Shown here in pieces: positions 885-21,709 of a stretch of DNA of 25,010 nt (position 1 is its first letter; the number at the start of each line of letters is the position of its first letter). Origin of the DNA: a virus. Where the stretch lies: UHGV virus genome UHGV-0271208; one strand, written 5' to 3'. The notes under the pieces were generated by a model that was not told where the DNA came from, did not search any database, and saw only the letters and a list, made by a program, of their open reading frames with translations. A program made the translations under genes and the position numbers.

Positions 885-1213
885 GATTTCGGGCGAGTAA
901 AGAAAACAAACATTCCGATAATGATATCGCCAATAACCCAGATGGTTCCCAGCATCATCATCCCCAGCCCCGTACCAATTGCGGCTCCGGCCCGTTCTGC
1001 GTCTGAGGCTGCGTTATTGATAACGTCACTACTGCCGCCAGCCCCGGCAAAAATGCAATAGATCATAAAGATGTTAAACAGGATAAATATCCACTTAACG
1101 ATCTTGCCAAAAAATGAGCGCTTCGGCTTTCTGACCTGATGGCCGCAAGACGGACATTTAAACGCTGAATCACTAATTTCTTTACTGCATTCCGGGCAGT
1201 TTACTAATGCCAT
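881..1213 (-). CDS. Zinc-ribbon membrane protein (CPxC...CPxC followed by two hydrophobic helices)
   Basis: ORF 881-1234; the likely start is the third ATG (1213), which has AGGA 4-5 nt upstream and gives MALVNCPECSKEISDSAFKCPSCGH, a zinc ribbon, followed by two predicted transmembrane segments. Start uncertain (1213, 1228 or 1234). Confidence 0.65.
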   Translation of the reverse strand: MALVNCPECSKEISDSAFKCPSCGHQVRKPKRSFFGKIVKWIFILFNIFMIYCIFAGAGGSSDVINNAASDAERAGAAIGTGLGMMMLGTIWVIGDIIIGMFVFFTRPKS

Positions 1214-1280
1214 TTTCCTAGACTCCATAGACATGGTTACATAACCGCCATAAAGCCTATCAGTTGATTTTGTTTGAATA

Positions 1281-1320
1281 AATAAAAATTAACCCGCCAT
1301 ATAGGCGGGTTATTTTAGAG
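1281..1320 (-). terminator. Putative terminator after ogr (bidirectional-looking hairpin)
   Basis: Stem AACCCGCC/GGCGGGTT at 1291-1311 with loop ATATA, flanked by AATAAAAATT (a T-run on the minus strand) immediately after the ogr stop. Confidence 0.6.
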
Positions 1321-1557
1321 TGCCAGCGATAACTGATCTTCGCCGTGGTGACTTCGTGGAAAAGCTTCTTGTGGCACCATCGCGCCGGGCGCTGGCTGGG
1401 TCTGGTTTAGTGAACCGTCTATTTCCGTCATGCTGGTGAAACAGTACCCGCACAACATATTTTGACACTGGTGATAGCTGCGTCGTACAAGCAAACTCAG
1501 CTCAACGCTGGTTCTGGTTTTTGCTATTGCACGGCAGCGAGGACAGCGCATTGCCAT
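1315..1557 (-). CDS. ogr: Ogr/Delta-family zinc-finger late-gene transcriptional activator
   Basis: 80-aa ORF with CPRC...RTS...YHQCQN.LCGYCF, matching the P2 Ogr / phage 186 B / P4 Delta signature (CPxC, RTS, YHQCQN, C..F). AGGAGG lies 7 nt upstream of the ATG. Confidence 0.85.
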   Translation of the reverse strand: MAMRCPRCRAIAKTRTSVELSLLVRRSYHQCQNMLCGYCFTSMTEIDGSLNQTQPAPGAMVPQEAFPRSHHGEDQLSLAL

Positions 1558-1605
1558 ACGCGGGCCTCCTTTCAGGACTGGTTAATATCAACGCAAGTAT
1601 AACGC

Positions 1606-2724
1606 TTAAGACGTTGAATCGTCACTCTCCGCTGTCCAGTCGTCGATTTTTACTTCCAGTTCCAGCGACGTGGTAAACCCTCCCCCGCCAATATCGTGAA
1701 CGCACCGCGTTATCGTCCAGTTCCCACTGTCGATCGTGGACTTAAAGCCGTAGACGCTGGCGGGCTGTTCCGGGTACAAATCTGCGCGGCCACGCGCCAG
1801 GGTGATGCTGAACGTAGCCGCACCGCGCTGCAACTCCCGCCACTTAGCCGCAGCGGCACGCTTCGCCGCCTTTTCCGTCTTGAAGGTTTTACGTATAACA
1901 AAAACGTTACCTTCGGCCCCGGCCAGATAATCACCCTCTTTTTTGCTGGATGCAGGCTCTTTCTTTTTGGCCTGGCTGGTTCGTCGCCTGCGGGTTGTTT
2001 TCTTCACGGTAGTGGATGGTTTCTTGCCAAAGTTGAGATCAAGCCAGTATGCAGTTACGCCCGTGTACGCGTCGCGGTCAGCTACGTTAAAGCTATGTTT
2101 ATCACCGCTTGACCGGACTATCTCGATCACCGGCAGCGGCTTGCCGCTCTGCGTCACTCCTTTGCCCGGCGTGATAAACAGAAGCATACCGTTTTTAATG
2201 GTTGCCACCGCGCCCAGCATTTCGGCCATGCGCGTTAAGAAGCTGATATCTGATTCACTCGTCTGATCGGCGTGGTCTATCTCAATCTTCGCCAGTTCTT
2301 CGCTGACACCCGCACGCAGATCGTAGCGACTGGCAATGCTGGCGACCACATCCCCCACGGTAATATCGTGCCAGCTATATTCCCTTTTCACGTTGAAGGT
2401 ATCGCGGAAATCTGCGCTTCTGGCACTGATCGTTAGCTGGTCAGGCGGGCCTGAATGACCTATCTCATCAACCGTATACACGCCCTTAAAAACCAATGGA
2501 TCATTATCCCAGCCCAGCGCCACCGATATCTTTGCGCCGCGTGGTGGTAATGCTACCTGCCCGTCTGCATCATCCAGAGTCAGATCCAGCGTGTCCGCTT
2601 CAAATCCCCGGTTATCTGTCAGGGAAAGAGAGATCAACCGGTTATCCAGCGCCGTAAGCTGATTACCTTCAATTTCAATACTGAACGCCGGGCGCGGCGA
2701 ATATCGGTTTTCTGTCGTGTCCAT
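1606..2724 (-). CDS. D: P2 gpD-like tail protein (phage late control D family, baseplate hub)
   Basis: 372-aa ORF with the gpD-family pattern (RLISLSLTDNRGFEADTLDLTLDD, ISARSADFR, an internal Lys/Arg-rich linker, C-terminal FTTSLELEV). Directly upstream of ogr on the same strand, as in P2. Confidence 0.85.
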   Translation of the reverse strand: MDTTENRYSPRPAFSIEIEGNQLTALDNRLISLSLTDNRGFEADTLDLTLDDADGQVALPPRGAKISVALGWDNDPLVFKGVYTVDEIGHSGPPDQLTISARSADFRDTFNVKREYSWHDITVGDVVASIASRYDLRAGVSEELAKIEIDHADQTSESDISFLTRMAEMLGAVATIKNGMLLFITPGKGVTQSGKPLPVIEIVRSSGDKHSFNVADRDAYTGVTAYWLDLNFGKKPSTTVKKTTRRRRTSQAKKKEPASSKKEGDYLAGAEGNVFVIRKTFKTEKAAKRAAAAKWRELQRGAATFSITLARGRADLYPEQPASVYGFKSTIDSGNWTITRCVHDIGGGGFTTSLELEVKIDDWTAESDDSTS

Positions 2725-2791
2725 ATCAACCCCTTCATCATGATGGGGTACATCGTCGCCACGCGCGCGCGCATGAACAACGCCCCGTCAT

Positions 2792-2809
2792 TGTTGCAGG
2801 TTGCTGACA
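2792..2809. promoter_or_regulatory. Ogr-type late-promoter dyad (TGT-N12-ACA) between divergent D and FI
   Basis: TGT at 2792-2794, a 12-nt spacer, ACA at 2807-2809. The centre is about 81 nt upstream of the FI ATG and about 76 nt upstream of the D ATG. A weak -10 candidate (TGATATT, 2846-2852) lies on the FI side. P2 late promoters carry TGT-N12-ACA centred near -55. Confidence 0.5.
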
Positions 2810-2881
2810 ACCCTTATTCATCGCATCAGCCTGCCATTGCCGCAATGATATTCGCAGTCATTAAACTGGCGAGGCAAATAC

Positions 2882-4075
2882 ATGGCCACTAACTACCATC
2901 ACGGTGTAACCGTCACGGAAACCACCGACCTTAGCACGATGATCACCGACATTGATTCGGCGGTGATCGGCGTTGTCTGCACCGCTGATGATGCGGACGA
3001 AACAGCGTTCCCGCTGGATACCCCTGTACTGATCACCCGCGTGGCTAACATGCTGGGCAAGGCAGGTAAAACCGGCACCCTGTTTACCACCTTGAAAGCG
3101 ATTTCAGACCAGACCAGCCCGCAAACCATTGTGATCCGCGTTGCTGATGCTGCAAATATCGAACCGCCAGAAGGCGGCACCGCACAGACACAGGATCAAC
3201 TGGTTATTGGCGGCACCGATGCAAACGGACGCTTTACCGGCATGTACGCGCTGCTGTCTGCCGAAATGCGCGTAGGCGTGCGCCCGCGTGTGCTGGCTGT
3301 TCCCGGTCTTGATACGGAAGCGGTGGCCGCACAACTCGGCGTCATTGCCGAAAAGCTGCGCGCGTTTGCTTACGTGGCAGCGAACGGCTGCAACAGCATC
3401 GCCGAAGTGAAGGAATACCGCGAACAGTTCTCCCAGCGTGAAATGATGGTTATCTGGCCTAATTTCATCTGCTACGACACCAACGCCGGAGCGAATGCCA
3501 CCGTGCCCGTGGGTGCCCATGCGGTTGGGATGCGCGCCAAAATCGACGCAACGCAGGGCTGGCATAAAACCATTTCCAACGTGCCCGTTAATAACGTGCT
3601 GGGGATGGATCGGGATATCTATTTCACGTTGCAGGGCACCGATACCGACGCCGACGAACTGAACGCAGCAGGCGTTACCACGCTGATCAAGCAGGACGGC
3701 TACCGCATCTGGGGATCGCGTACCTGCGACGCGGAAACGTATATCTTCGAAAGCTATACCCGAACCGCGCAGATCGTTGCGGATACCGTCGCCGAAGCAC
3801 ATTTCGCCTATGTTGATAAACCGCTTACCCCGTCGCTGGTAAAGGACATTGTGGACGGCATCAATAAGAAGCTGACCTCATATGTGACGGCTGGCAAGCT
3901 GCTGGGCGCCCGCTGCTGGTATGACCCGGAACCGAATACCTCGGAAACCCTGCGCAATGGTCAACTGACCATTAAGTACAACTACACCCCTGTTCCACCG
4001 CTGGAAAATCTCAGCCTGGTACAGGAGTTCACCGACGAATATTTCGCTACGTTTTCCAGCGCAGTGAATAACTAA
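2882..4075 (+). CDS. FI: Contractile tail sheath protein (P2 FI-like)
   Basis: 397-aa ORF; the N-terminus (YHHGV.V) and overall pattern resemble the P2 FI sheath family. GAGG SD 7 nt upstream. Followed by tube, E/E', T and U in P2 order. Confidence 0.9.
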   Translation: MATNYHHGVTVTETTDLSTMITDIDSAVIGVVCTADDADETAFPLDTPVLITRVANMLGKAGKTGTLFTTLKAISDQTSPQTIVIRVADAANIEPPEGGTAQTQDQLVIGGTDANGRFTGMYALLSAEMRVGVRPRVLAVPGLDTEAVAAQLGVIAEKLRAFAYVAANGCNSIAEVKEYREQFSQREMMVIWPNFICYDTNAGANATVPVGAHAVGMRAKIDATQGWHKTISNVPVNNVLGMDRDIYFTLQGTDTDADELNAAGVTTLIKQDGYRIWGSRTCDAETYIFESYTRTAQIVADTVAEAHFAYVDKPLTPSLVKDIVDGINKKLTSYVTAGKLLGARCWYDPEPNTSETLRNGQLTIKYNYTPVPPLENLSLVQEFTDEYFATFSSAVNN

Positions 4076-4087
4076 CCGGGGGCGCTT

Positions 4088-4603
4088 ATGGCACTGCCTA
4101 AGAAACTCAAATATTTCAATATGTTCTTTGACGGGGATAACTACTTCGGCATGGTGCCGGAAATCACCCCCGCCAAACTCACCAAAAAAACCGAAGACTA
4201 CCAGGCGGGCGGTATGCCGGGTTCGGTTGCGGTGGATCTGGGCTTCGACGCTGGCGCCCTGGATATGGATATCACGCTGGGCGGCATGGATGCAGGGCTA
4301 ATGAAAAAATGGGGCGTTACCACTGCGGACGGAATGCAGGTGCGCTTTGCTGGCTCTTACCAGGACGATGCGACCGGCGACGCCGTACCGTGCGAAATCC
4401 AGACGCGTGGCCGCTTCACTGAACTGGATCCCGGTTCGGCAAAGGTTGGGGATGATACTTCGCATAAGTACACCCTGAAAAACACCTATTACAAGCTGAC
4501 CATCAATAGCGAAGAAATTATCGAAATTGATGTGCTCAACATGATCTACAAAGTTGCCGGTGTGGATGTGCTGGAAAAACACCGCGCTAACATCGGCTTA
4601 TAA
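4088..4603 (+). CDS. FII: Tail tube protein (P2 FII-like)
   Basis: 171-aa ORF 12 nt after FI; size and position match P2 FII. Confidence 0.85.
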   Translation: MALPKKLKYFNMFFDGDNYFGMVPEITPAKLTKKTEDYQAGGMPGSVAVDLGFDAGALDMDITLGGMDAGLMKKWGVTTADGMQVRFAGSYQDDATGDAVPCEIQTRGRFTELDPGSAKVGDDTSHKYTLKNTYYKLTINSEEIIEIDVLNMIYKVAGVDVLEKHRANIGL

Positions 4604-4617
4604 GGAAACCCGGCACC

Positions 4618-4953
4618 ATGAGCAAGACCAAAGAAAACACCGTTATTCTTACCGCCCCTATTACGCGCGGTAAGACCAAAATCACCGAAGTGGCGATCAC
4701 TTCCGTGCTTAGACAGGCTGGATCACTGCGCGGCTTAAAAGCCTATGACGTGCTGACGTCCAACTATGACGCGCTGGTTATTCTGCTGCCCCGCGTTACC
4801 GCTCCGGCATTAACCGCCGATGAGATTGCCCGAATGGATACCTGGGATTTTTGCCAGTTAGCCAACGCGGTGGTTGATTTTTTGCAACCCTCTTCGGATC
4901 TGACCGCGACGGATACGGGCAACGAATCATCCGATGCCCCTGCGAACGCATAG
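4618..4953 (+). CDS. E: Tail assembly chaperone (P2 gpE-like), zero-frame product
   Basis: 111-aa ORF with AAGGAA SD; lies between the tube and tape-measure genes and contains a TTTTTTG slippery heptamer in frame. Confidence 0.8.
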   Translation: MSKTKENTVILTAPITRGKTKITEVAITSVLRQAGSLRGLKAYDVLTSNYDALVILLPRVTAPALTADEIARMDTWDFCQLANAVVDFLQPSSDLTATDTGNESSDAPANA

Positions 4954-5078
4954 AAGACCTGATGGCAGATATCGCCGTCATATTCCACTGGCGGCCGGTA
5001 GAGATGGACGCCATGACGGTACAGGAAATACTGTTATGGCGTGATCAGGCGGCTGCGCGCAGTGGTGGAGATCACTAA
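4618..5078 (+). CDS. E': E+E' fusion chaperone made by programmed -1 frameshift at T6G (4878-4884)
   Basis: The heptamer T_TTT_TTG sits in the zero frame at 4878-4884. The -1 frame stays open for 64 codons (ATLFGSDRDGYGQRIIRCPCERIEDLMADIAVIFHWRPVEMDAMTVQEILLWRDQAAARSGGDH) and ends at TAA 5076-5078, overlapping the T start as TAAATG. Same arrangement as the P2 E/E' frameshift. Confidence 0.6.
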
Positions 5079-8000
5079 ATGGCAGACCGCAATTTAAATA
5101 TCAGGGTGGCATTCAGCGCCCTGAATAATATGTCCCGCCCTGTCAACGCGGCGCGCCAGAGTGCCGCCGCGTTGGCGTCTCAAATCAATCAGACCAAAAC
5201 CAGCATTAAAGGGCTTGAGCGTCAGGCAACCAGCTTTGACCGCCTCACCGCAGCCAATAAAAAAACCACCGAACAACTGGCCCAGGCGAAAGAACAGGCC
5301 CGGCAAATGGCGGCGGCTTATGGCCCGTTACGCCAGCGCAGCGCCGAACAGGTTGCCGCCCTCAATCAGCAACGTGCAGCCATTCGCCAGTTAACCCAGC
5401 AGCAGAAAGGCGAGCAGACGCAGCTTAACCAGTTGCGCGCCAGCTTCTACAGCGAAGGCATTGCGATCAGCAGCGCCAGCCGGGCGACGGAACAGATCAA
5501 CCAGCGCACCGCGCAATACAACCGCCAGCTTGCCGAACAGCAGCGACGGCTTGACGCTGTTAACCAGGCGCAGGCCCGTTACAGCCGCGCCAAAGAAACC
5601 GGCGAAAAGATGATGAGCGGGGGGATGAAAACCGCCGCAGTAGGGGCGGCAACCCTCGCACCTGTCGCCGCTGCGGTTAAATCATACAGCAGCCTTGAAG
5701 ACGCCATGAAAGGCGTAGCCAAACAGGTAAACGGCTTGCGTGACGACAGCGGCAACCGCACCCCGCAGTATGAAGAAATGCAGCGGGCGATCATGGATGC
5801 CAGCGAAAAGCTACCAATGGCTAACGGCGCTGTTGACTATGCCGCCCTGGTCGAAGGTGGCGCGCGCATGGGCGTGGCAAACAGCGATGATCCGTGGGAA
5901 AAACAAAAAGCCGATCTGCTGGCTTTCGCCAGCATGGCGGCAAAAGCTTCGGTAGCCTTTGAACTGCCCGCCGATCAGCTTTCTGAAAGCCTCGGTAAGA
6001 TTGCCGGGCTGTATAAAATCCCTACCCAGAATATTGAACAGTTAGGCGACGCCATAAACTACCTGGACGATAACGCGAAGTCGAAAGGCTCCGATATTAT
6101 CGACGTGCTCCAGCGCGTTGGCGGACTTGCCAGCCAACTGGATTACAAGCAAGCCGCCGCGCTGGGTTCCACCTTCCTGACGCTTGGATCACCTGCCGAA
6201 GTTGCCGCCAGCGCAACCAATGCAATGGTGCGCGAACTATCGATCGCCACAGTACAAAGCGATAAATTTTTGGGTGCGCTGGATGAAATCGGCGTCAATG
6301 CTGAAAAAGTCCAGAAAAGCATGTCAGTGGACGCGATGGGCACGATCATTTCAGTGCTGGAAGCGTCCAAAAAACTTGCACCAGATAAGCAGGTAGCCAA
6401 CCTTACTCAGATTTTCGGTAAAGAGTTCGGCGATGATGCGCAGAAACTTGCGAACAACCTGCCCGAACTACGCCGCCAGATAGAACTGACGCAGGGCGCA
6501 GCCGCTAAAGGTTCCATGAATCGGGAATCTGATATCAATAAAGCGTCCCTTTCAGCTCAGTGGCAACTGACCAAAACCGGCGCGGTTAACGCATTGAGTT
6601 CAGCAGGGGAAACGCTCCGCGAACCGCTGATGGATATCATGCTTACCGTCAGTAAGGTGGTTGGCAGCGTCCGCCGCTGGGTTGAGGCAAACCCGGCTCT
6701 GGTTGGCTCAATCATGAAAGTCACCGCAGCCATAGGCGCGTTGCTGGTTGTCGTGGGTGGCCTGATGCTGACCATCGGCGCAGTGCTCGGCCCGATGGCA
6801 CTTGTTCGCCTCAGCTTCACCACGCTGGCTGGCTCCGGTGGGGTAACTCCCCTCATAGGCTCGCTGGGAAAATTATCCAGCACATTACGCGGGCTGATCC
6901 CCTCACTATCTGGCGTGGGCCGAAGTATTAAAGACTGGCCTGCCCTCTTCCGATCTGCTGCGTCTGGCATTACCCAATTTAGTAAACAAGCTATTGGCGG
7001 GTTAAACACAGCGTTAATGGCACTTTCACGCGGTGCTGTTGCTGCCGGACAGGGGCTATTTACCCTATTCACAAGGCCTATGACGGCTATAACCTGGCTT
7101 GGTAATGGCCTCAGAACTCTGGCGACCTCCGGTTTCGGCGCTTTGCTGAACGTTGGACGCACCGTAATGATGGCGTTGGGTGGCGGGTTATCATTACTTC
7201 TTAGCCCTATTGGAATACTGGTAATCGCTTTATCAGCAGCAGCGATCGCCGTTATTAAATTCTGGGAACCTATAAAAGCCTTTTTCACTGGCTTTTACAC
7301 CGGGTTAATGAGTGGCTTACAGCCTTTAACCTCAGCATTTAGTACAGCCTTTGCACCACTAGCCCCACTCTTTGACTCTATCGGTAATGCTGTCGGTGGC
7401 GTCTGGGAGTGGTTCACAAAACTATTCGAACCTATCCAGTTCTCCAGCGAAGCGCTAGCCTCCTGCACCAGTGCCGGGGAAACGTTCGGTAAGGTTGTAG
7501 GTAACGCTCTATCTGCATTAACACCAATAATCGAAGGAATAGCGCGCGGTATAGGATGGGTACTGGAAAAACTCGGCGCCATCCCCGACGCAACAAAAGC
7601 AGCGCAGCAAGCTGCGGAAAGTATGCACAAAGACCCTGTTGTCTGGGAGTGGGATCCGCAGCAAAAGAAAATGGTTAAAAAGGGTTGGAACTGGTCGCCG
7701 AAAGACGATCAGCAGAAGAAAACCAACCAGAAGCAACAGCAGGCCATTGACCAGCAGAAAAAGCAGGAAAGCTTAATTAACTCGCTCAAGGGCCCGGCCA
7801 ACATCGTGCCGAAGATGAGCAGCAGCCTGGATAAGATCGCCACCAATACCACGGAGAAGAAAGACGGCCCCGGCGAAATTGTCTTCAAGAATAAGCAGCC
7901 CTATATCCCGATCCGTGGCGGATATTCGGAACCGCTTAAGCAGGCACAGCGCCAGCTACCATCCCTTACCGATTGGGTGACGCAGCAGGCCGGATCGCTG

Positions 8001-8249
8001 ATCGCTTCCGTTACCCCCTGGCAGGTTGAGAAGCCCGCCGCACGGATGCCTGTTTCGGCGTCTCCGTCTGCGGCTTCCGTCGCTGCGCTGATGCCTGCTC
8101 CGGGTGGCGATGTATATAACCTTAACTTCGACTTTAGCGGCCAGAAACTGGATGAAGAAACCATTATCAGGCGCGTGCGCGAAGAACTTGCGTTAGCGAA
8201 GCAACAGGCCGACCGGCGCAAGCGCTCCCAACTGACCGATCACGTCTAA
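5079..8249 (+). CDS. T: Tail tape measure protein (P2 gpT-like), 1056 aa
   Basis: Long ORF right after E/E' with an Ala/Gln-rich coiled-coil N-terminal third, central Gly/Ala-rich hydrophobic segments and a Lys/Gln-rich C-terminal region; position and composition typical of tape measure proteins. Confidence 0.9.
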   Translation: MADRNLNIRVAFSALNNMSRPVNAARQSAAALASQINQTKTSIKGLERQATSFDRLTAANKKTTEQLAQAKEQARQMAAAYGPLRQRSAEQVAALNQQRAAIRQLTQQQKGEQTQLNQLRASFYSEGIAISSASRATEQINQRTAQYNRQLAEQQRRLDAVNQAQARYSRAKETGEKMMSGGMKTAAVGAATLAPVAAAVKSYSSLEDAMKGVAKQVNGLRDDSGNRTPQYEEMQRAIMDASEKLPMANGAVDYAALVEGGARMGVANSDDPWEKQKADLLAFASMAAKASVAFELPADQLSESLGKIAGLYKIPTQNIEQLGDAINYLDDNAKSKGSDIIDVLQRVGGLASQLDYKQAAALGSTFLTLGSPAEVAASATNAMVRELSIATVQSDKFLGALDEIGVNAEKVQKSMSVDAMGTIISVLEASKKLAPDKQVANLTQIFGKEFGDDAQKLANNLPELRRQIELTQGAAAKGSMNRESDINKASLSAQWQLTKTGAVNALSSAGETLREPLMDIMLTVSKVVGSVRRWVEANPALVGSIMKVTAAIGALLVVVGGLMLTIGAVLGPMALVRLSFTTLAGSGGVTPLIGSLGKLSSTLRGLIPSLSGVGRSIKDWPALFRSAASGITQFSKQAIGGLNTALMALSRGAVAAGQGLFTLFTRPMTAITWLGNGLRTLATSGFGALLNVGRTVMMALGGGLSLLLSPIGILVIALSAAAIAVIKFWEPIKAFFTGFYTGLMSGLQPLTSAFSTAFAPLAPLFDSIGNAVGGVWEWFTKLFEPIQFSSEALASCTSAGETFGKVVGNALSALTPIIEGIARGIGWVLEKLGAIPDATKAAQQAAESMHKDPVVWEWDPQQKKMVKKGWNWSPKDDQQKKTNQKQQQAIDQQKKQESLINSLKGPANIVPKMSSSLDKIATNTTEKKDGPGEIVFKNKQPYIPIRGGYSEPLKQAQRQLPSLTDWVTQQAGSLIASVTPWQVEKPAARMPVSASPSAASVAALMPAPGGDVYNLNFDFSGQKLDEETIIRRVREELALAKQQADRRKRSQLTDHV

Positions 8250-8258
8250 GGCAATATC

Positions 8259-8708
8259 ATGATGATGATTCTGGGGATGTTCCCCTTTTCACTGCAAACC
8301 ACACCTTACCAGAGTGCGAATAAAACCAACTCCTGGCGGCACGTCAAAAACGATCGCGTGGGGAAATCCCCGCGCTATCAGTTCATCGGCGCAGATGAAG
8401 AACCGTTCGTACTCAGCGGCACGCTGTACCCCGAAATAAGCGGCGGTGATGTGTCGCTTGTCATGCTGGAAACTATGGCTTTTTCCGGGCGCCCGTGGCC
8501 CCTGATAGAAGGCACGGGCAGGATCTACGGCATGTATGTAATTGAGCAGATCACGCAAAACCGGACGGAGTTTTTTAAGGACGGGAAGGCAAAGAAAATT
8601 GATTTCACGCTCAACCTGAAACGGGTAAGCGAGGACATACGGGAAAAGCTGGCTGAAACCACCACCGACGATCTCTTCTCTCTGGTGAAAACCAACCTTT
8701 CGATATAA
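8259..8708 (+). CDS. U: Tail protein (P2 gpU-like)
   Basis: 149-aa ORF 10 nt after T; size and position match P2 gpU. Confidence 0.8.
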   Translation: MMMILGMFPFSLQTTPYQSANKTNSWRHVKNDRVGKSPRYQFIGADEEPFVLSGTLYPEISGGDVSLVMLETMAFSGRPWPLIEGTGRIYGMYVIEQITQNRTEFFKDGKAKKIDFTLNLKRVSEDIREKLAETTTDDLFSLVKTNLSI

Positions 8709-8710
8709 GA

Positions 8711-8738
8711 AAAGCGGGCCATTGCCCGCTTCGTCTTC
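8711..8738 (+). terminator. Possible terminator after U
   Basis: Stem AAGCGGGC/GCCCGCTT at 8712-8731 with loop CATT, followed by CGTCTTCC (a weak U-tract). Confidence 0.4.
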
Positions 8739-8814
8739 CGTAATACACCACCATAACTGACCGTGCTACAGCACCGTTAAAAGTGACCGTACTCGATACA
8801 CACGGCCAGCACGG

Positions 8815-9141
8815 TTATAACCGGCCATGCGTGCCGGAATTCTTATCTCTGGTCGCTGGGAATTTTTTGTAAAGCGTAGATATCCCAACATCATAAATTA
8901 TGGCAACCCTCCGGCGCGATTCCCCTGCCGCTATTAACCTACCCGCCTGCGCCCATTGTTCTGGTGTAAGTTTGGGACGTCGTCCACCAATTCGTCCCTG
9001 TGCGCGAGCAGCTTCCAGGCCAGCTTTTGTTCGTTCAACAATCAGTTCTCGCAGGGTCTGAACGTAAGGCGAATCCTGGGAGTCGGTTCTTACTGCATCC
9101 TTTTCACTGGGGCTTGATGGGCCCAAGCGTGGATCACTCAC
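8815..9141 (-). pseudogene. Truncated serine DNA invertase (Cin/Gin/Hin/Pin family); C-terminal HTH part only
   Basis: 108-aa ORF with RELIVERTKAGLEAARAQGRIGGRRPKLTPEQWAQAGRLIAAG...VAIIYDVGISTLYKKFPA, which matches the C-terminal half of Hin/Gin-type invertases. The ORF begins at GTG and no catalytic N-terminal domain is found in any frame upstream (9141-9524). Confidence 0.7.
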
Positions 9142-9524
9142 GCGTCAGTGAGTGGAGCGCGTGTCTCAATAATGACCTCGAGCGTTTTGTCGATATTTTG
9201 GAGAGTCAGATTGAGCTCAGTAAGAGCCGCAATGAGTGGAAGGAGGTTATCTCCGCCGCCACCATAGCCAATGCCTCCACAGCTCTGGATTGGGGGATGG
9301 TTCACGAGGTTGCCGCCGCCACTTACCCGCAGGCACCCGGCACATACTGGTGGATTAACTGTTAACATAATTACCTCTCAAATTTAAATTGGGCAGAGAT
9401 GCCAGCATCCAGGCTCGCGCCTGGACGATTGTCTGATGATGAAAAGTGCAGTTTAATCTGTGGCTGGATTATCTGGATGCACTGGAGCTGGTTGATACCT
9501 CCAGTGCGCCAGATATTGAATGGC

Positions 9525-9935
9525 CTACTCCTCCGGCAGTTCAGGCCAGATGACATCCGGTGCGGTGCTGGTATCTGTTGCCGTCACAGCGTCGATATAA
9601 TCCAGCACAGCGTTAAGTCGGGTAGTTTCTTCTTGCGTCAGTTTACGCCCGGCCTGCAGCTTTAACTGAATCACGCTGATATTGACCATTGCTGCGTCTA
9701 ACAGCGACTGTTTTTTCTGTTCAGCATCAGCTACCAGTTCATCATGAGAACGTTCCGGAGGGAGCGGCGCAGTAAATACCCCGTCTGAATACCCCCAGCC
9801 AATTCCGGGATGCTCACTGATATCAGAAATATCAATGAGCTGCTGATTATCCGGCACTGTGAATTCAGCCTCGCCATCCCAGACAATGACATTCACAACC
9901 ATCTCATTTTCAATAACTGCATATGACGCATTCAT
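9525..9935 (-). CDS. Tail fibre assembly protein (Tfa; P1 U / P2 G-like)
   Basis: ORF 9525-9959; the likely start is ATG 9935, overlapping the fibre stop as TAATG, giving MNASYAVIENE. The C-terminal APDVIWPELPEE resembles tail-fibre chaperones. Confidence 0.85.
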   Translation of the reverse strand: MNASYAVIENEMVVNVIVWDGEAEFTVPDNQQLIDISDISEHPGIGWGYSDGVFTAPLPPERSHDELVADAEQKKQSLLDAAMVNISVIQLKLQAGRKLTQEETTRLNAVLDYIDAVTATDTSTAPDVIWPELPEE

Positions 9936-12649
9936 TATGCAAACTCCTCGATAATACAAATCCCATCAGCACCTTTCCCGCCTGTCATACTGGTTCCGCT
10001 ATAACCGGCATCGTATGCGCCACCGCCACCTGAACCATATGCCTTACCACTAACACCACCGCCAGCGCCTGCGCGTCCACCGCCCCCCCAGTACGATGTT
10101 CCGCCTTCACCGCTGACGCCGATATTTCCGGACTGACCGTCGCCACCATTTCCACCAGTGATGCTGATATCGCCAGTACTCGGCACACCTCCGTTACCGC
10201 CGTTTGTGTTTGTGGTTCCTACTTTTCCGGCACCTTCGCCACCGATAGCAATTAACGATGCGAACGAACTATAGCCGCCATTAAGGCCGTAATTTGCTCC
10301 AATACCACCGGCTCCACCTGCGCCGATAGTGACTGGATAACTATTCTGTGTCGGGGTCATTATTGAAATTATTGTTCCACCGGCCCCGCCGCCAGCACCG
10401 AAAAACGTTTCATTATTGGATATAGCCTGGCAGCCGCCCCCACCACCACCGCCACCCGTTATTGTGACCCTGATCCGTTTTGTTCCTGGGGTTGGGGTAT
10501 ACGTACCTGATGAAGTGAAAACCTGGGTATTCACCAAACGCCCAACATATCCGCTTGAATCGCTCAGGCCAAGGTTAGCAGCAGTTAAAGTAATATTTGC
10601 AGAACCATCAAACTTAACACCGTTGATAGTGCGTGCAGTCTGTAGTTTCGTTGCGGTTGCGGCATTACCGGTAGTGCTCTGATTACCTGCTTTATTCACG
10701 CCCGGCAGGTCGATATTGGCACTACCATCGAACGACACTCCGCCGATTGTGCGTGCTGTTTGCAGTTTTGTGGCGGTGGATGCATTACCTGTCAAAGATC
10801 CACTAAGAGCCACGGCACTAAGAGACTTAACACTTACATCCTGACCCCATCCGGAAACAACAACCTGACTCCACGCTGCCCAGCTTCCATTAACAACAAA
10901 GCGAACGTATATACGTTTTGTGTCGCTGTTAATCAGCGTTTGCATGTTCGCATAATCTGATCCCGTAGTCTTACGAATCGACTCTACACGAACCAAAAAG
11001 TTACCGCTTACGCCGTCAGGCTTATTGGTAATATTTGCACCACCTGCGACAGTTTTGCATTGATAGTATTTAACGGATCCAGCTTCTGTATTAGCAATAA
11101 TCAAGTCGTTTAAATCAATAGTCCGGCCGTCAATGGCTTCCGGCTCGATGGCTCCTGCTATCCCGGCACTGAATGTGGCAGCGGCTGAAAACGCTGTCTT
11201 ACCTTTGAAAGTCTGTTGAGAACTCCAGGTATTAGCTGTGCTCAACAGGGGGATCTTTTCGCCGCTGGTTCCGATTTCTCTTAAACCAAGGTATTGGATA
11301 ACAGCCAGTGTGCTTGTTTTAGCCAGGATATCGCGACCGACTGACGTTAAATCAGTCTGGGAAACAGTGTCTGTACCGGTAAAGTACGGCAATTTATTTG
11401 CGCCTGTCGCAAGACCAGCAAGCGCGGTTAAAGTTGCATCCAGAGGCTGTTTGCCTGCCAGCGCATTTGTCATTGTTGTCGCAAAGTTCGGGTCATTGCC
11501 CAGTGCTGCTGCAAGCTCATTCAGGGTATCAAGAGCTTCAGGTGATGAGCCGACCAATGCAGAGATAGCAGCTCTTACATAAGCGGTCGTAGCAATCTGC
11601 GTGTTATTCGTACCCTGTGCAGCGGTAGGCGCAGTAGGTATTCCCGTTAATGCAGGACTTGCTAAAGGAGCTTTAAGAGCCAGAGCATTGTTGATAGTTG
11701 TGCTGAAATTCGGGTCGTTATTGATCGCAGCAGCTATTTCTTTAAGCGTATCCAGAGTGCCAGGTGCACCGTTGATAAGTGCCGTTATAGCTGCCTTAAC
11801 AAAGGCTGTATTTGCGATCTGCGTGCTGTTTGTACCTTGCGCTGCCGTCGGCGCGGTTGGCGTTCCTGTCAGACTCGGGCTTTCTATTGGCGCTTTGGTA
11901 TCAGCCAGCTCTTTTACAGACTTAACGGCTTTAGGGGTAGCCGCCATTGTTTCGCTGTCGCTGTTAGTTGCGCTACTGAGCTGAACTAATCCCTTTTGTG
12001 TTGTGCTTGCATCCTGCGCCGTATACTTGCTTTTAGCCAGATCGTAGGCTTTTTTAACCGCCAGCGAACTTGCAGCGACATCACTTCTGGTACTGGTTAC
12101 AGAGTCGGAAATTTCAATGCCTATCGCGAGATCGATGCGGTCGGATACATCTATCATTTCCTTAGTAATAGCAGATACGCCAGCAGGGATATTCACCGTA
12201 CAAACAAGCAGTTCTCCATCTCCTAACTGATATGAATCGGTATAGGTTCTGGCAACAAATTCAGCCGCATGAATATGTGACGCGGTATTAACCTGATAAG
12301 AATCTTCTCCAAGGAGGTATCTTCCCTTCAGCACAATTGCATATTTCTTACCTGCGCTAAGTGCAAGAGAAATATCCTTACGCTGCTGAATAGTTACCTG
12401 GTAGAATTCACCAATATTCACTGACGCCGCGCCAGCGGTTTTATCACCATCCACTGAGGTGATTAACAGGTTCATCCCACCGCCAGGCTTAGGAAAAAAA
12501 CCGGCATAAAATCCAGGGTCAACAATTCCCCTGAATTTTCGGTTTAGCGCGGCTGACAGATATGGTTCGTGGTATTGCACATCAGCCACCAGAGCCAACG
12601 ACTCGGGTGATGGGTAAGTAACCGATGTGACAACTGTAACGTCATTCAT
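9935..12649 (-). CDS. Long tail fibre protein (P1 S-like) with Gly-rich C-terminal domain
   Basis: Contains repeated tail-fibre motifs (GLVQLSSATNSDSETMAATPKAVKSV, TGTPTAPTAAQGTNSTQIANTAFV, ALDTLNELAAALGNDPNF) and a C-terminal Gly-rich domain including GGGGGGGG. Likely start MNDVTVV at 12649 with AAGGA SD; the ORF track extends to 12736. Confidence 0.85.
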   Translation of the reverse strand: MNDVTVVTSVTYPSPESLALVADVQYHEPYLSAALNRKFRGIVDPGFYAGFFPKPGGGMNLLITSVDGDKTAGAASVNIGEFYQVTIQQRKDISLALSAGKKYAIVLKGRYLLGEDSYQVNTASHIHAAEFVARTYTDSYQLGDGELLVCTVNIPAGVSAITKEMIDVSDRIDLAIGIEISDSVTSTRSDVAASSLAVKKAYDLAKSKYTAQDASTTQKGLVQLSSATNSDSETMAATPKAVKSVKELADTKAPIESPSLTGTPTAPTAAQGTNSTQIANTAFVKAAITALINGAPGTLDTLKEIAAAINNDPNFSTTINNALALKAPLASPALTGIPTAPTAAQGTNNTQIATTAYVRAAISALVGSSPEALDTLNELAAALGNDPNFATTMTNALAGKQPLDATLTALAGLATGANKLPYFTGTDTVSQTDLTSVGRDILAKTSTLAVIQYLGLREIGTSGEKIPLLSTANTWSSQQTFKGKTAFSAAATFSAGIAGAIEPEAIDGRTIDLNDLIIANTEAGSVKYYQCKTVAGGANITNKPDGVSGNFLVRVESIRKTTGSDYANMQTLINSDTKRIYVRFVVNGSWAAWSQVVVSGWGQDVSVKSLSAVALSGSLTGNASTATKLQTARTIGGVSFDGSANIDLPGVNKAGNQSTTGNAATATKLQTARTINGVKFDGSANITLTAANLGLSDSSGYVGRLVNTQVFTSSGTYTPTPGTKRIRVTITGGGGGGGGCQAISNNETFFGAGGGAGGTIISIMTPTQNSYPVTIGAGGAGGIGANYGLNGGYSSFASLIAIGGEGAGKVGTTNTNGGNGGVPSTGDISITGGNGGDGQSGNIGVSGEGGTSYWGGGGRAGAGGGVSGKAYGSGGGGAYDAGYSGTSMTGGKGADGICIIEEFA

Positions 12650-12660
12650 CAAGCATATCC

Positions 12661-13095
12661 TTATGCTGTAGTCGTGTTTATGGCCATAACTGCGGTATAT
12701 GTTTTGCCCACATACAGCGAGTCTTCCTGGACACAAATAATGGCGATTGGCTTGTTCTCGTTATCCAGAACAACCAGAGTGTTGAATGGGTAGTTTTTCC
12801 CTTTCTGCAACTGGCTTTGATCAAGGTCCATTCGGACAGTAATTATCCCGCCTGAGTAGGTTGGGACGAGGTTGATGGTGCAAAATTTACTGGTCAGTTC
12901 TGCCAGCTCGAAAGCCTTTGGCAGTTCTCCAATCTCATAAGTGCCATCTCCTTTCTTAGTAACCAGTGAACTGGTACCGAAAACGGCCTTGCTGATTAAA
13001 AATCGAGAGCCTTTGTTAATGGACGATTCAGCGCGCCGCTGATAGTAATAGTCCAACAACTGACTCTTATAGAGGTTTGTTGAGACGTCAGACAT
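12661..13095 (-). CDS. Tail-fibre-associated structural protein (position of P1 R)
   Basis: 144-aa ORF ending 12 nt before the fibre start. Assignment is by gene order only. Confidence 0.55.
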   Translation of the reverse strand: MSDVSTNLYKSQLLDYYYQRRAESSINKGSRFLISKAVFGTSSLVTKKGDGTYEIGELPKAFELAELTSKFCTINLVPTYSGGIITVRMDLDQSQLQKGKNYPFNTLVVLDNENKPIAIICVQEDSLYVGKTYTAVMAINTTTA

Positions 13096-13173
13096 GATTT
13101 TCCCTAATCAATGTTGTGAAGCCTCATTGTAAGAGAAGTAACTTGTCACCCCGCCCTGCGGACGGGGTGATTG

Positions 13174-14013
13174 TCAGGCGTCGCTATCCAGCAACAAATC
13201 ATCTGCGCGTGTGCGATCAAACGTAGGTGTCGCTTTCACAATAGTGCCACCAGGCGTTGCGGTGATCGGGGCGCTAATCGACGTAACTCCAGTAAGCGAA
13301 GTTGTATCCGAAGTTTCAAACCAGCAGTACGCTTTTTCGGTATCAGAAATCTCGTTCAAAGTGATCATGTCGGCCTGTTCATTCACAACAACCGACAAAT
13401 AGAGCGTAAGCCCATCAAACACTATATGCAGTGGCAGTAGAGGCTTTACGAACTGATTAAACTTTCTGAGAATTTCTTCTGTAATTGCGGACTGATCTAT
13501 CGTGCCAGTAATACCCATTGTCCGGGCCAGGTCGTTTATGGGAATACTGATCATCCCTCTGGAAGTCAGAAACATCTCACCGAATGTGCCGCCGGTAGTT
13601 TCCAGTGTGCTTTCTGGTATTAGAACTGTGCCATAGGGATGACGTTCAAGGTCCACCGGTGCATATATCGGATCCCATAAAACAGAAATACCATTAAATT
13701 CGCGGTAAATTGTCTGGTTTATAGGGCGTTCAGTCCCCTTAAAGTGAATCTCATCAAGCCGCTGTTGTAACAACATCGGAACGGAAGATGAGTTTGAGGT
13801 TCTGATAGTAAAGAACTGGCCAAGTTCATTTGTCCTGGTCTCCAGATCCTCCTTGCTCATGGAAAAAATAGACTTCCGGTTGGTAATTCGCTCCAACCAT
13901 GGGTCAACAAAGGTGTCCATCATTGACTGAACCAAATCAGCCAATGATTTATAGAGCAATGACTTTTGCTTAGCTGATGTAAGCCGATTATTAAACCAGG
14001 AACGTTGCATCAC
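13174..14013 (-). CDS. Baseplate or tail structural protein (position of P1 gene 16)
   Basis: 279-aa ORF whose start overlaps the upstream stop by 4 nt. Assignment is by gene order. Confidence 0.55.
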   Translation of the reverse strand: MMQRSWFNNRLTSAKQKSLLYKSLADLVQSMMDTFVDPWLERITNRKSIFSMSKEDLETRTNELGQFFTIRTSNSSSVPMLLQQRLDEIHFKGTERPINQTIYREFNGISVLWDPIYAPVDLERHPYGTVLIPESTLETTGGTFGEMFLTSRGMISIPINDLARTMGITGTIDQSAITEEILRKFNQFVKPLLPLHIVFDGLTLYLSVVVNEQADMITLNEISDTEKAYCWFETSDTTSLTGVTSISAPITATPGGTIVKATPTFDRTRADDLLLDSDA

Positions 14014-15443
14014 TCCTCCTCATACGAAATATTAAAGGTGGAGTTTTCTGTATCCAGATAAACGAAATCGTAAAAGCCGTTGGACTCATTCCACTCGACA
14101 AATTCCAGATAAAAGTCGCGGAAATAACCCAGCGTTTCGATAAATGCCCAAACGTCTTTTTTCTTGATCAGGATGTACTTGCCGACACCGTTCGGATCAA
14201 AGAAATTTGAGTCGCGCCCAAATTTTGTTTCCAGTGCCGACTTCAACTCATCAGTCACGTTCTCAATAGTCAGGCTTGCCGATATCCGCCCGGTGATGGT
14301 TATCTTAAATGGTAGTTTTCTGACCTCTTTATAAGAGAATTTCTTGTTCAGTTCATTCGGTACCTTCTTAAAGGCAGTCAGGATCATTTCTTCAAGCTCT
14401 GACTGGCTTTTATTTGGATGCCATCCTGAAATAAATATCTTATTGATATTCTGAACATTATAAGCACCATCTAATTTCTCTTGCTGGCCTTCGCCCCATG
14501 CCTTTACCCAGGACAGCCCAGGGATGTTACGAACCAGAAAATACGTATAGTCCCCGCCCCATACGACCTGATCATCATAGGCAAGGTAATATTGTGCACG
14601 GTTACGTGTGATCTCCGTTGTTTCAGCATCGGTACCTGCGGTTATAGGTGTCGTTGTCTTAACTGAAATCAAATTAGCTAAATTAGCCGCAGAATCGACA
14701 GGCGTCAGGTTTTGGCCAGCAACCAGGGTTATATCGCCGTTGGTGCACCATACCTTAAGCGTAATTGTCGAACCTTCTGGCGGTATTTGCCCAATTAGCC
14801 CATCGCCGAATCGAACCCCCAACTGCTCGGATGGTTTATAAAACTCAACGTAGACCTGGCTTTTACTACCGGCTAACCGGAACATAGTGCTGGAAGACCA
14901 CTGCGTGGTCTTACCATCGGTCGTCACGAATACTTCCAGCTTATAGCAGACAGCAGTAAGAGCCTTTGATAACACGACTTCCAGAAATTCTTTGGCTGCC
15001 GTAACGGTATATGTCACCTCCTGGATTTCCAACTGTGCCACTTCTACCGTACCGGTGCCGTCAACCAACCTGCATACATCCATAGTCATGTAAGGGTACT
15101 GGTCGTCAGATATTAAAGGCATGTTTTTGGGGATTACCGCTGGAGCATCTTCACTTGTGGCGGTGATCTCAATCATCCCCGATGACGGTGTTGGCTTGGT
15201 ACCAACGTAACTATTCGTTTCTGCCGCTGCCAGGATAGAGGAACGCCGCGTCGCGGTCGATATAAAGCCTTCAGCCAGCGCCGCATCGGCATACTGAAAG
15301 CACCTGTAGACAATCTGGGTAATAAACAATGTCAGCATCGAGACAAATTGAGAGCCGACAAACTTCGACCAGAATGAATCTTTCTCGACAAGCTCTTCAA
15401 ACTCTGCACGAATACTGTCTTTAGTCGGTGTTGTTTTACTCAT
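14010..15443 (-). CDS. Baseplate protein (position of P1 bplA)
   Basis: 477-aa ORF translationally coupled to both neighbours by 4-nt overlaps. Assignment is by gene order. Confidence 0.55.
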   Translation of the reverse strand: MSKTTPTKDSIRAEFEELVEKDSFWSKFVGSQFVSMLTLFITQIVYRCFQYADAALAEGFISTATRRSSILAAAETNSYVGTKPTPSSGMIEITATSEDAPAVIPKNMPLISDDQYPYMTMDVCRLVDGTGTVEVAQLEIQEVTYTVTAAKEFLEVVLSKALTAVCYKLEVFVTTDGKTTQWSSSTMFRLAGSKSQVYVEFYKPSEQLGVRFGDGLIGQIPPEGSTITLKVWCTNGDITLVAGQNLTPVDSAANLANLISVKTTTPITAGTDAETTEITRNRAQYYLAYDDQVVWGGDYTYFLVRNIPGLSWVKAWGEGQQEKLDGAYNVQNINKIFISGWHPNKSQSELEEMILTAFKKVPNELNKKFSYKEVRKLPFKITITGRISASLTIENVTDELKSALETKFGRDSNFFDPNGVGKYILIKKKDVWAFIETLGYFRDFYLEFVEWNESNGFYDFVYLDTENSTFNISYEEE

Positions 15444-15799
15444 AGCACCACGTCCTGTGTGATAGTTATATCCCTGATACGAATGGATATTTTCAACTTA
15501 TCAAAAGCATCTCCCTCGGCTACTGACAAGCCAGAAATCGGTATGTCAGGTAAATCTACCGTCAGTTTTTGCAACAGCATTGCCTCAACCGCAATTTGAA
15601 CATGCGACAAGTTGGTCGGTTCGTGTTTAAACTGCGGTAAAACATTGCCCCATGACGGATCTCCGTATACCTCACCCTGATAAGTGTTTAGCCACTCATA
15701 TAAACGAGCGCCCCAGGCCTCCTCCTGGGACTCATACGTTTTTACGCCGGATAACTCCAGCGTCAGCAAAGGATCAATTTCGTTATTGTTGGCCATCAA
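15440..15799 (-). CDS. Small morphogenetic protein (position of P1 pmgA)
   Basis: 119-aa ORF overlapping the stop of the Sit-like gene by 4 nt. Confidence 0.55.
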   Translation of the reverse strand: MMANNNEIDPLLTLELSGVKTYESQEEAWGARLYEWLNTYQGEVYGDPSWGNVLPQFKHEPTNLSHVQIAVEAMLLQKLTVDLPDIPISGLSVAEGDAFDKLKISIRIRDITITQDVVL

Positions 15800-19485: not shown

Positions 19486-19566
19486 GATCTTATCGCCTAC
19501 CGTTTCGGTTTAAGTTTTTCTTCCAGTTTCTCCAACAGGAAAAACGCATAGGATTCAGTAAGCCTT

Positions 19567-20448: not shown

Positions 20449-20462
20449 CCTTGCTCCTTAAT

Positions 20463-21074
20463 TCAAAGAGAAAAACTAAAGCCCAGAAGGGAAGCCAAAG
20501 AACTTGAGGATTGGTTAAACGTGCTGTGCAATGCGAAGGTCATTGGGAATGACTTAAATTCAGTAACCTGATCTCGCGCATAGGTGACATCGCCGGTAGT
20601 GACCGGGAATACCGTCATCTCATTTTCCAGTTTGGTTATGCCGGAAGACAGCAACCGATAAATACGCACATTGAGCAAATATTTAGACGGTATATTCCCG
20701 GTACCGTCCGGATTGATCACCCGACTTTTTGCCGTCTTAAACCAGTCCAAAACGAGGCCATCAACGGTATCCCTGACCATCATTGTTATCTGCCCAGGCG
20801 AACGCTCCGTTGGCTGAAGGATATTCCCTCCGCCGATTTTAATCGTTTCATATTCGATGCTGTAATCGTGGTAGGTAATGTCTTTAGCAAAGAAGTCTGC
20901 CCCCTCCAGACCATCAACTTCGACAGAGAACTGCCATCCTTGCGCGAACAGCATTTTGTTCATGATGATTGACGTCAGCTTGCCAACTTCCCGCTCACCA
21001 ACGCCGGAGCCAAATAATGTCGTCGTTAATGCCGAAGATACATAAGACTTTACTGAAGCAACATTAAGCCCCAT
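20463..21074 (-). CDS. Putative tail tube protein (position of P1 tub)
   Basis: 203-aa ORF, 14 nt upstream of the previous gene. Assignment is by gene order. Confidence 0.55.
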   Translation of the reverse strand: MGLNVASVKSYVSSALTTTLFGSGVGEREVGKLTSIIMNKMLFAQGWQFSVEVDGLEGADFFAKDITYHDYSIEYETIKIGGGNILQPTERSPGQITMMVRDTVDGLVLDWFKTAKSRVINPDGTGNIPSKYLLNVRIYRLLSSGITKLENEMTVFPVTTGDVTYARDQVTEFKSFPMTFALHSTFNQSSSSLASLLGFSFSL

Positions 21075-21084
21075 ATCAGCCTCC

Positions 21085-21675
<591 letters not shown>

Positions 21676-21709
21676 TTACCCGATTCTACGAGTAGTCATT
21701 TGTGACAGG

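Follow-up and report, generated by a model that had tools for sequence, protein, structure and literature searches.

Divergent D and FI tail genes in a P2-like prophage arm: an order shared across a clade, with a predicted bidirectional late promoter

The divergence of D from FI in the DNA analyzed here, where ORF and Pfam calls put FI-FII-E/E'-T-U (2882-8708) on the plus strand and both D and ogr on the minus strand, is the normal working layout of a whole branch of P2-like phages. The window, that is, the whole stretch of 25,010 nucleotides from the virus genome UHGV-0271208, probably carries a Senquatrovirus-like left arm with an inherited inverted FI-U order, which would work via one bidirectional Ogr-dependent promoter between D and FI. 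In the arrangement that we propose, the start of the window would be the left arm of a SEN4/SEN5-type P2-family prophage integrated beside fieF, in which FI-FII-E/E'-T-U has a fixed orientation, opposite to that of D-ogr as well as of the baseplate and tail-fibre operon. One symmetric dyad for Ogr binding would serve a rightward FI start (~2856) and a leftward D start (~2745), its centre lying at about -55.5 for both; ogr would be driven by its own sigma-70-type promoter at the D end, and terminators after ogr and between U and an invertase gene would close the transcription units. What would make the divergent order work is the D/FI gap, most likely a single late promoter that acts in both directions. 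Moreover, since the order is fixed in a clade that includes viable phages, it is ordinary, and neither a broken nor a freshly flipped operon.

The seven tail-cluster genes are readily recognized. The product of ogr (1315-1557, minus strand; Pfam Ogr_Delta, E = 1.5e-13), an Ogr/Delta zinc-finger late activator, is 30% identical to P2 Ogr and its translation keeps the CX2CX22CX4C zinc finger (C5, C8, C31 and C36) by which the Ogr motif is defined (PMC3931495). D (1606-2724, minus strand; Pfam Phage_GPD), coding for the gpD tail/baseplate hub protein ('late control D'), is an intact ORF that covers positions 12-302 of the 305 in the profile, and its product is 98.7% identical to SEN5 D and 50% identical to P2 gpD. 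On the plus strand, the tail sheath gene FI (2882-4075; Pfam Phage_sheath_1, Phage_sheath_1C and Gp18_domIII_N), with 94% identity to SEN5 FI, is followed by the tail tube gene FII (4088-4603; Pfam Phage_tube, E = 4e-61) and by E (4618-4953), for an E-type chaperone with a weak match to Pfam Phage_TAC_7. A slippery TTTTTTG (T6G) at 4878-4884 predicts an E+E' -1 frameshift product (4618-5078, plus strand); frame analysis finds the E' frame open up to 5078, and RefSeq annotates a GpE family protein on E. coli 730V1 at the equivalent of 5004-5078. The tape measure gene T (5079-8249; Pfam PhageMin_Tail) and the tail protein gene U (8259-8708; Pfam Phage_P2_GpU, E = 4.7e-39) complete the block. Homologues of FI, FII, E, T, U, D and Ogr, which make up the contractile-tail module of the P2 family (Peduoviridae), are all present and intact.

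These gene identities and strands are those given by an earlier sequence-only reading of this DNA, and its statement that FI-U is inverted relative to P2, with D divergent from FI, holds against the P2 record. The P2 F operon has the same seven genes, the E+E' frameshift, a terminator after ogr, and ogr downstream of D with a promoter of its own. However, in P2 the order is FI-FII-E-E'-T-U-D and then ogr, with D last and the stop of U overlapping the start of D, whereas in the window D stands apart from the operon and diverges from FI. The co-directional FI-FII-E-T-U-D order of the Peduovirus F operon, with D at its end, is thus absent from the window. The order found is of the Senquatrovirus type: ogr-D lies on one strand and FI-U on the other, D and FI are divergent, and U is convergent with the tail-fibre side.

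This order recurs well beyond the window. The Salmonella phages SEN4 and SEN5 (Peduoviridae, Senquatrovirus SEN4) are colinear with the window at 93.5% nucleotide identity over ogr-D-FI-FII-E-T-U, with identical gene order and strands, D/FI gap, dyad and both -10 hexamers. The prophages at fieF of E. coli 730V1, CX12 and 2020N21-246 are also colinear, at 96-98% identity, and share both the integration flank and the tail-gene order of the window. D is likewise divergent from FI-FII-E-T-U in Escherichia phage P88 (Xuanwuvirus), Enterobacter phage phiT5282H (Novemvirus), Klebsiella phage 3LV2017 (Reginaelenavirus) and Serratia phage KSP20, although D in these four phages is only ~62% identical to that of the window. 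The divergent order thus spans four ICTV genera (Senquatrovirus, Xuanwuvirus, Novemvirus and Reginaelenavirus). It is found in all 80 of the IMG/VR relatives examined, in which the identity of D goes from 100% down to 64%, and each of the 32 E. coli records that match a 1-kb D/FI junction, which come from 31 complete genomes, has it unbroken; no half-only match occurs among them. SEN4 and SEN5 form plaques and have contractile tails in electron microscopy (PMC5261728), and P88 is inducible, forms plaques and was imaged by electron microscopy with a contractile tail (PMC5285337). The sequence-only reading took the order as non-canonical and anomalous, possibly recent or defective, and named close relatives with working tails as what would overturn this view; SEN4, SEN5 and P88 are such relatives, and the view fails against an order fixed across a large Peduoviridae clade. 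We think it probable that the divergent FI-U order is old and inherited, being neither a recent inversion, nor a switchable segment, nor an assembly error. For annotators and for callers of prophage completeness, D divergent from FI should not count as evidence that a P2-like tail cluster is broken, being the standard layout of several Peduoviridae genera. The order itself is already known from named phages; a literature search of incomplete coverage returned no paper that explicitly discusses it or a bidirectional promoter between D and FI.

That FI-U could be a switchable or recently flipped segment, turned by a Cin/Pin-type invertase or by recombination between repeats, is suggested by the invertase gene or remnant that adjoins the U end, both in the window and in relatives. 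The window copy (8815-9141, minus strand; Pfam HTH_7 only) is a Cin/Pin-family DNA invertase remnant consisting of the C-terminal HTH part alone, and is no intact serine invertase, having no catalytic domain. Compared with the 582-bp gene of 730V1, which is intact, its homology ends at ~9050, and it misses 533 bp relative to the pseudogene of CX12. Relatives with an intact invertase have its inverted repeats around the tail-fibre segment and not around FI-U. Moreover, the ends of the FI-U block carry no inverted repeats, as the sequence-only reading had judged by eye: none of the 25 longest inverted pairs connects 2725-2881 with 8709-8814, and when the two boundary regions are aligned locally in inverted orientation, the top score is 7 (7.24 ± 0.97 in shuffles). 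Crossover cores of the cix/gix type (AAACCNNGGTTT, up to 2 mismatches), which an invertible segment would have in inverted orientation at both ends, are absent from both boundaries; across the window such matches number 14 against 13.2 expected, that is, they are at chance level, and the only good site (11274-11299) is inside the tail-fibre gene. Nor do both orientations occur, the opposite one being found in 0 of 80 IMG/VR loci and in 0 of the 31 E. coli genomes that carry the D/FI junction, and the order is common to genera in which D is only ~62% identical. A switchable or recently flipped FI-U is therefore already largely refuted, and we regard it as highly improbable. An ancestral flip of FI-U by the neighbouring Cin/Pin-family invertase at secondary sites, tolerated in that the symmetric Ogr site of the block's own promoter also came to serve D, is very unlikely; the part of the invertase in such a flip is pure speculation, no sites remaining, while the sharing of the promoter belongs to the explanation that we favour. 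If true, this would be a natural case in which a palindromic activator site rescued an inverted operon. An assembly artefact, with a mis-join at the block boundaries, could be suspected from the unusual P2-like/P1-like join found further to the right, which is shared by no other record, but both block boundaries are reproduced base for base in independent complete genomes and in phage genomes, which leaves a mis-join there a negligible prospect.

How D would be expressed in the inherited divergent order is suggested by the gap of 157 bp (2725-2881) that separates it from FI. The gap contains a single Ogr-type activator dyad, TGTTGCAGGTTGCTGACA (2792-2809; TGT-N12-ACA, centre 2800.5), which is the sole match to TGT-N12-ACA in the first 17 kb of the window and a putative site shared by the late promoters of D (PD) and FI (PF). 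On the D side, PD is predicted at 2752-2780 (minus strand), with a -10 GACGAT at 2757-2752, a (CG)5 run in the spacer (2762-2772), a -35-like TTGTTC (2780-2775) placed 17 nt from GACGAT, and a start at ~2745. On the FI side, the predicted -10 of PF is AATGAT (2844-2849, plus strand), with a start at ~2856. Both -10 hexamers lie exactly 34 nt from the dyad, and the two predicted starts are 111 bp apart, each 55.5 bp from the dyad centre. GACGAT and AATGAT are weak matches to the -10 consensus, as are the hexamers of P2 late promoters. With the reservation that the starts are predicted, both promoters have the P2-type late-promoter form, a TGT-N12-ACA partial dyad centred near -55, for which the consensus and the dependence on Ogr have been described (PMC3931495).

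This anatomy is conserved. TGT and ACA are kept, with a spacer that varies, in 56 of 57 distinct D/FI gaps, the remaining one (L077) being without a perfect dyad. When the offset from the dyad is scanned over 22 dyad types, which are phylogenetically related so that the counts overstate independence, only offset 34 gives A2 of the -10 in 22/22 on both sides, with T6 present at this offset in 22/22 types towards FI and in 20/22 towards D. P88, phiT5282H, 3LV2017 and KSP20 have one dyad each, with -10 hexamers ~34 nt away on each side; the FI-side hexamer of 3LV2017 is at offset 35, the dyad of P88 and phiT5282H is TGT-N12-AGA instead of the TGT-N12-ACA of the window, and the D/FI gap of P88 is also 157 bp long. 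In L066-type relatives the predicted D start falls on or beside the ATG, so that either the mRNA would be leaderless or the start is wrongly assigned. The sister prophage of 730V1 has intergenic TGT-N12-ACA sites between D and FI, in front of V and between O and P; the promoters PV and PP of this prophage have the TTGTT-(CG)n template found in PD, and the shared-site bidirectional geometry recurs at O/P. In phages with the divergent order, three Ogr sites appear to drive five late transcription units.

The closest known counterpart of the D/FI gap is the pP/pO region of P2, where two back-to-back promoters share one activator site, each with its -10 hexamer 34 nt from the dyad. A single 'activator binding site; pO, pP promoters' is annotated in the P2 record, and the mapped starts (3016 and 3127) are 111 bp apart, so that single site, equal -10 distances and spacing of starts are all matched in the window, where the starts are predicted and not mapped. 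The P2 dyad is, however, TGT-N12-CCA, and pP and pO drive the P-Q and O-S operons (head, lysis and tail completion) and not D and FI. The D/FI gap may reproduce the shared-site design of pP/pO, which we offer as a hypothesis and as a small biological addition.

Alternatively, D could be transcribed from an ordinary sigma-70 promoter, independently of Ogr, with the dyad acting for FI only and D being constitutive or early. The TTGTTC on the D side, at its 17-nt distance from GACGAT, would fit such a promoter, classic P2 late promoters being described as devoid of a -35. However, the distance from the dyad to the -10 of D is an invariant 34 nt, with no indels, across very divergent gaps, which would be surprising for a dyad with no role at D. 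In addition, the same template of TTGTT-(CG)n and -10 follows the dyads at PV and PP of the sister prophage, and the layout equals that of the shared pP/pO site. An Ogr-independent D promoter thus seems unlikely, although the partial -35 may possibly allow some activator-independent transcription. We infer Ogr binding, the two transcription starts and the late timing of D from the features of the gap, which has the anatomy of a bidirectional Ogr-dependent promoter; therefore D is most likely still a late gene and not orphaned. The implication of the sequence-only reading that D is cut off from late expression finds no support in a gap with this predicted anatomy.

The bidirectional D/FI promoter would act within transcription units whose other ends can also be placed. 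The -10 of ogr's own promoter is predicted as TATACT (1596-1601, minus strand), overlapping the 3' end of D, in the scan match GTGACG-18-TATACT. The generic sigma-70 scan was at chance overall (6 matches against 5.7 expected) and served as a positional hint only, followed by a check of conservation: TATA(A/C/G)T is conserved in every group of divergent relatives, ~35-40 nt before the ogr ATG, and the P2 record annotates an ogr promoter at the same place. The D-ogr unit ends at an intrinsic terminator (1290-1312, minus strand; 9 pairs, then ATTTTTATTT), which folds at -17 kcal/mol (z = -5.4) and occupies the place that the terminator downstream of ogr has in P2. The terminator scan also detected a hairpin (8711-8732) where U and the invertase gene converge; read on the minus strand it has a T-run and is a terminator (-19.9 kcal/mol, z = -3.4), whereas on the plus strand it is just a hairpin (-15.7 kcal/mol, z = -3.0).

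To the right of the tail block the window differs from its relatives. In SEN4 and SEN5, which have no invertase there, P2-type G, H, I, J, W, V and the head genes follow, whereas in the window P1-like DNA comes after the invertase remnant; another difference is in the cargo genes beside ogr. CX12 shares with the window an invertase pseudogene and a glycine-rich tail-fibre end, at 98-99.9% identity, but the prophages of 730V1, CX12 and 2020N21-246 have full P2-type baseplate, lysis and head modules, whereas in the window the sequence becomes P1-like within the tail-fibre gene. The genes V, W, J and I and the lysis and head genes that follow the tail-fibre genes in a complete Senquatrovirus-like prophage are absent within the window. 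It is conceivable, if rather doubtful, that the tail block is a decaying remnant in which D, ogr and FI-U are no longer co-expressed after the P1-like disruption, given that P1-like genes replace the P2-type baseplate and head genes from ~10.6-11.2 kb onward and that the invertase is a remnant. No damage is seen, however, in the seven tail ORFs, in the signal for the E' frameshift, in either promoter half or in the terminators, and these elements are 93-100% identical to those of functional relatives. Decay would, in any event, concern the state of this single copy and leave the gene order unexplained.

The P1-like DNA extends from ~11.2 kb to the end of the window (11202-25010). No exact match to the join at 9040-9079 was found in a scan of one-genome-per-species contigs, and the chromosomal P1-like region of E. 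coli EC16, considered as a sister of the P1/P2 join, proved to be a whole P1-like element with no P2-like neighbour. The P2-like/P1-like join suggests recombination between a plasmid-prophage and a chromosomal prophage via a shared tail-fibre module, and it may matter more for this genome than the D/FI order. A duplication in a sit-like gene, missed by Tandem Repeats Finder, was detected by direct-repeat search.

The genes of the tail block lie on the plus strand from FI (2882-4075) through FII (4088-4603), E (4618-4953) and T (5079-8249) to U (8259-8708), while ogr (1315-1557) and D (1606-2724) are on the minus strand; the ORF listing and Pfam scans agree here with the gene calls of an earlier, sequence-only reading. 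TTTTTTG at 4878-4884 is the E+E' -1 frameshift signal, with the open E' frame running to 5078. D is 50% identical to P2 gpD and Ogr 30% identical to P2 Ogr, with the CX2CX22CX4C zinc finger (as defined in PMC3931495) present. In the P2 reference, FI-FII-E-E'-T-U-D-ogr are co-directional throughout; the FI-U block is therefore oppositely oriented here relative to P2, as the sequence-only reading had it. Its further suggestion, of a non-canonical operon from which D has been cut off, is not supported, because the same order is present in classified, viable phages. With 1200-9500 as the megablast query against deposited phage genomes, the Salmonella phages SEN4 and SEN5 (Peduoviridae, genus Senquatrovirus) are colinear at 93.5% identity, and in their annotation the genes from FI to U run opposite to D, after which the tail-fibre and baseplate genes return to the strand of D. 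Both phages were obtained as plaque formers and purified from single plaques; by electron microscopy their heads are icosahedral and their tails long and contractile (PMC5261728). A search of all phage records with the D and FI proteins also found the divergent adjacency in Enterobacter phage phiT5282H (Novemvirus), Klebsiella phage 3LV2017 (Reginaelenavirus) and many other Klebsiella phages, Escherichia phage Chuche, a 2009 fragment of Serratia phage KSP20, and Escherichia phage P88 (Xuanwuvirus), which is mitomycin-inducible and plaque-forming, has been imaged and has had its tail fibre engineered (PMC5285337). Near relatives with proven functional tails, SEN4/5 and P88, thus share the order, whereas the canonical one is kept where D is more distant (P2, ENT90 and Burkholderia KS5).

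The D protein retrieved 302 relatives from IMG/VR, and the best 80 of these (D identity from 100% down to 64%) were classified with the full set of seven window proteins as tblastn queries; in 80 of these 80, U, T, E, FII and FI are on one strand and D and ogr on the other. The 1-kb D/FI junction occurs in 32 records, which come from 31 of 5,426 complete E. coli genomes, in one piece and intact every time, with no half-only matches among the complete E. coli genome records. Compared with the window, the chromosomal prophages of E. coli 730V1, CX12 and 2020N21-246 show 96-98% identity; they adjoin fieF, as it does, and have full P2-type baseplate, lysis and head modules. The orientation cannot be an artefact of assembly, because both block boundaries recur in independent genomes. 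On these sequence comparisons, the divergent D/FI order is typical of the lineage rather than an anomaly.

Could FI-U be a switchable segment, or an inversion made by an invertase? Several observations contradict this view. Inverted repeats at the block ends, not seen by eye in the sequence-only reading, are absent: no repeats joining the two boundaries were found, local alignment of 2700-2900 with the reverse complement of 8680-8840 scored 7 (shuffles, 7.24 +/- 0.97), and there is no cix/gix-type crossover core at either boundary. The other orientation was seen in none of the best 80 of the 302 IMG/VR relatives and in none of the 31 E. coli genomes. Moreover, the invertase at the U end is truncated in the window, and where it is intact, in relatives, its repeats flank a tail-fibre segment instead of FI-U. 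The remnant (8815-9141, minus strand), of the Cin/Pin family, retains only the C-terminal HTH; its homology with the intact gene of 582 bp breaks off near 9050, and at about 9046-9051 it lacks 533 bp that the CX12 invertase pseudogene has. In the window copy, therefore, the tail-fibre segment is locked. U and the invertase gene converge on a strong hairpin terminator (8711-8732), and another lies beyond the end of ogr (1312-1290, minus strand).

The D/FI gap (2725-2881, 157 bp) contains exactly one match to TGT-N12-ACA, the activator site pattern of P2-family late promoters, TGTTGCAGGTTGCTGACA at 2792-2809; the rest of the 25-kb window has one other, at 17534. This dyad is present in 56 of 57 distinct D/FI gaps (window and relatives), its TGT and ACA invariant and its 12 inner bases freely variable, which is the signature of a putative protein-binding site and not of shared ancestry alone. 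On each strand a hexamer starts exactly 34 nt out from the dyad, AATGAT on the FI side (2844-2849, plus) and GACGAT on the D side (2757-2752, minus). When offsets of 24-45 were scanned over 22 dyad types, only offset 34 gave A at hexamer position 2 in 22/22 on both sides; T occupies position 6 there in 22/22 on the FI side and 20/22 on the D side. The spacing suffers no indels, even between gaps that are otherwise unalignable, and a D promoter independent of Ogr fits poorly with this invariance. The layout is the same in 3LV2017 and KSP20, with perfect dyads, and in P88 and phiT5282H, where the dyad is TGT-N12-AGA. An alternating CGCGCGCGCGC run (2762-2772) is located in the spacer of the predicted D promoter; it recurs in most relatives and, in the sister prophage (L002, near 34770 and 41170), in the late-promoter halves of V and P, but is absent from the FI and O halves. 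In one IMG/VR group (L066-L082) the predicted D start falls on or beside the D start codon, so that the D mRNA may be leaderless there or the start wrongly assigned.

In the P2 reference record, one "activator binding site; pO, pP promoters" is annotated (3057-3087), together with mapped starts at 3016 (minus) and 3127 (plus), 111 bp apart. The P2 dyad, TGT-N12-CCA at 3063-3080, has the hexamers TAGCCT and GAAACT exactly 34 nt off, one per side, and each mapped start is 7 nt past its own hexamer. Transferred to the window, this rule predicts starts at about 2745 (minus) and 2856 (plus), likewise separated by 111 bp, with the dyad centre 55.5 bp from either one. The 730V1 prophage has intergenic TGT-N12-ACA sites in the D/FI gap, upstream of V and between O and P, the last with -10 hexamers on both sides. 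The V and P halves resemble the D half in carrying TTGTT at 11 nt from the dyad and then, in the spacer, a (CG)n run, so the D promoter has the features of a regular late promoter in these phages. We infer that one shared predicted Ogr site drives both D and FI, in which case D would stay a late gene and the lineage would have five late transcription units on three activator sites. Ogr supply, in turn, appears independent of the D promoter, since ogr has its own conserved -10-like element, TATACT at 1601-1596, about 39 nt upstream of its ATG; all relative groups keep TATA(A/C/G)T at the equivalent position, even where Ogr identity is only 36-50%, and the annotated ogr promoter of P2 is located there too. 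By analogy, the mechanism that would allow the divergent order to function copies a design known from P2. The order itself is already known from classified, viable phages, and the predicted bidirectional promoter of D and FI adds one modest new point.

The window does not contain a complete P2-like prophage. Positions 1291-10585 match a CX12-type prophage (98.4% identity over 9046-10585, which holds the C-terminal part of the tail fibre and a tail-fibre assembly gene), 10586-11201 match neither partner, and 11202-25010 match P1-like plasmid prophages at 94-97% identity; this last stretch holds the tail-fibre N-terminal part, a baseplate J-like gene, KilAC antirepressors and a Sit-like protein of 1,229 aa with an SLT domain. 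The join therefore falls inside the tail-fibre ORF (9935-12736, 933 aa), a hybrid with a P2-like (CX12), glycine-rich C-terminal part and a P1-like N-terminal part. Within this gene and near the join, TTCTCTTAAACCAAGGTATTGGATAA at 11274-11299 is a cix/pix-type crossover site, about 75 bp from the end of P1-like similarity; in the intact 730V1 prophage a matching pair, CTTCTCCCAAACCAAGGTTTT, flanks the invertible segment. The join had no match among complete E. coli genomes, PLSDB plasmids or representative genomes, and may reflect recombination of a P1-like plasmid into a chromosomal P2-like prophage via the shared tail-fibre module, or a mis-join or mis-assembly. Between the ogr terminator and host fieF are two low-GC (about 44%) cargo genes (237-1234, minus), of which one (237-884) encodes a VasI/TagO-like protein associated with type VI secretion and the other (881-1234) a membrane protein with a zinc ribbon; CX12 and 2020N21-246 carry other genes there and the slot thus behaves as a moron site. 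The Sit-like protein (15796-19485, minus) has an in-frame 297-bp tandem duplication (copies at 18875-19086 and 19172-19383, 86% identical), which brings it to 1,229 aa; in other P1-like plasmids the protein has about 1,130.
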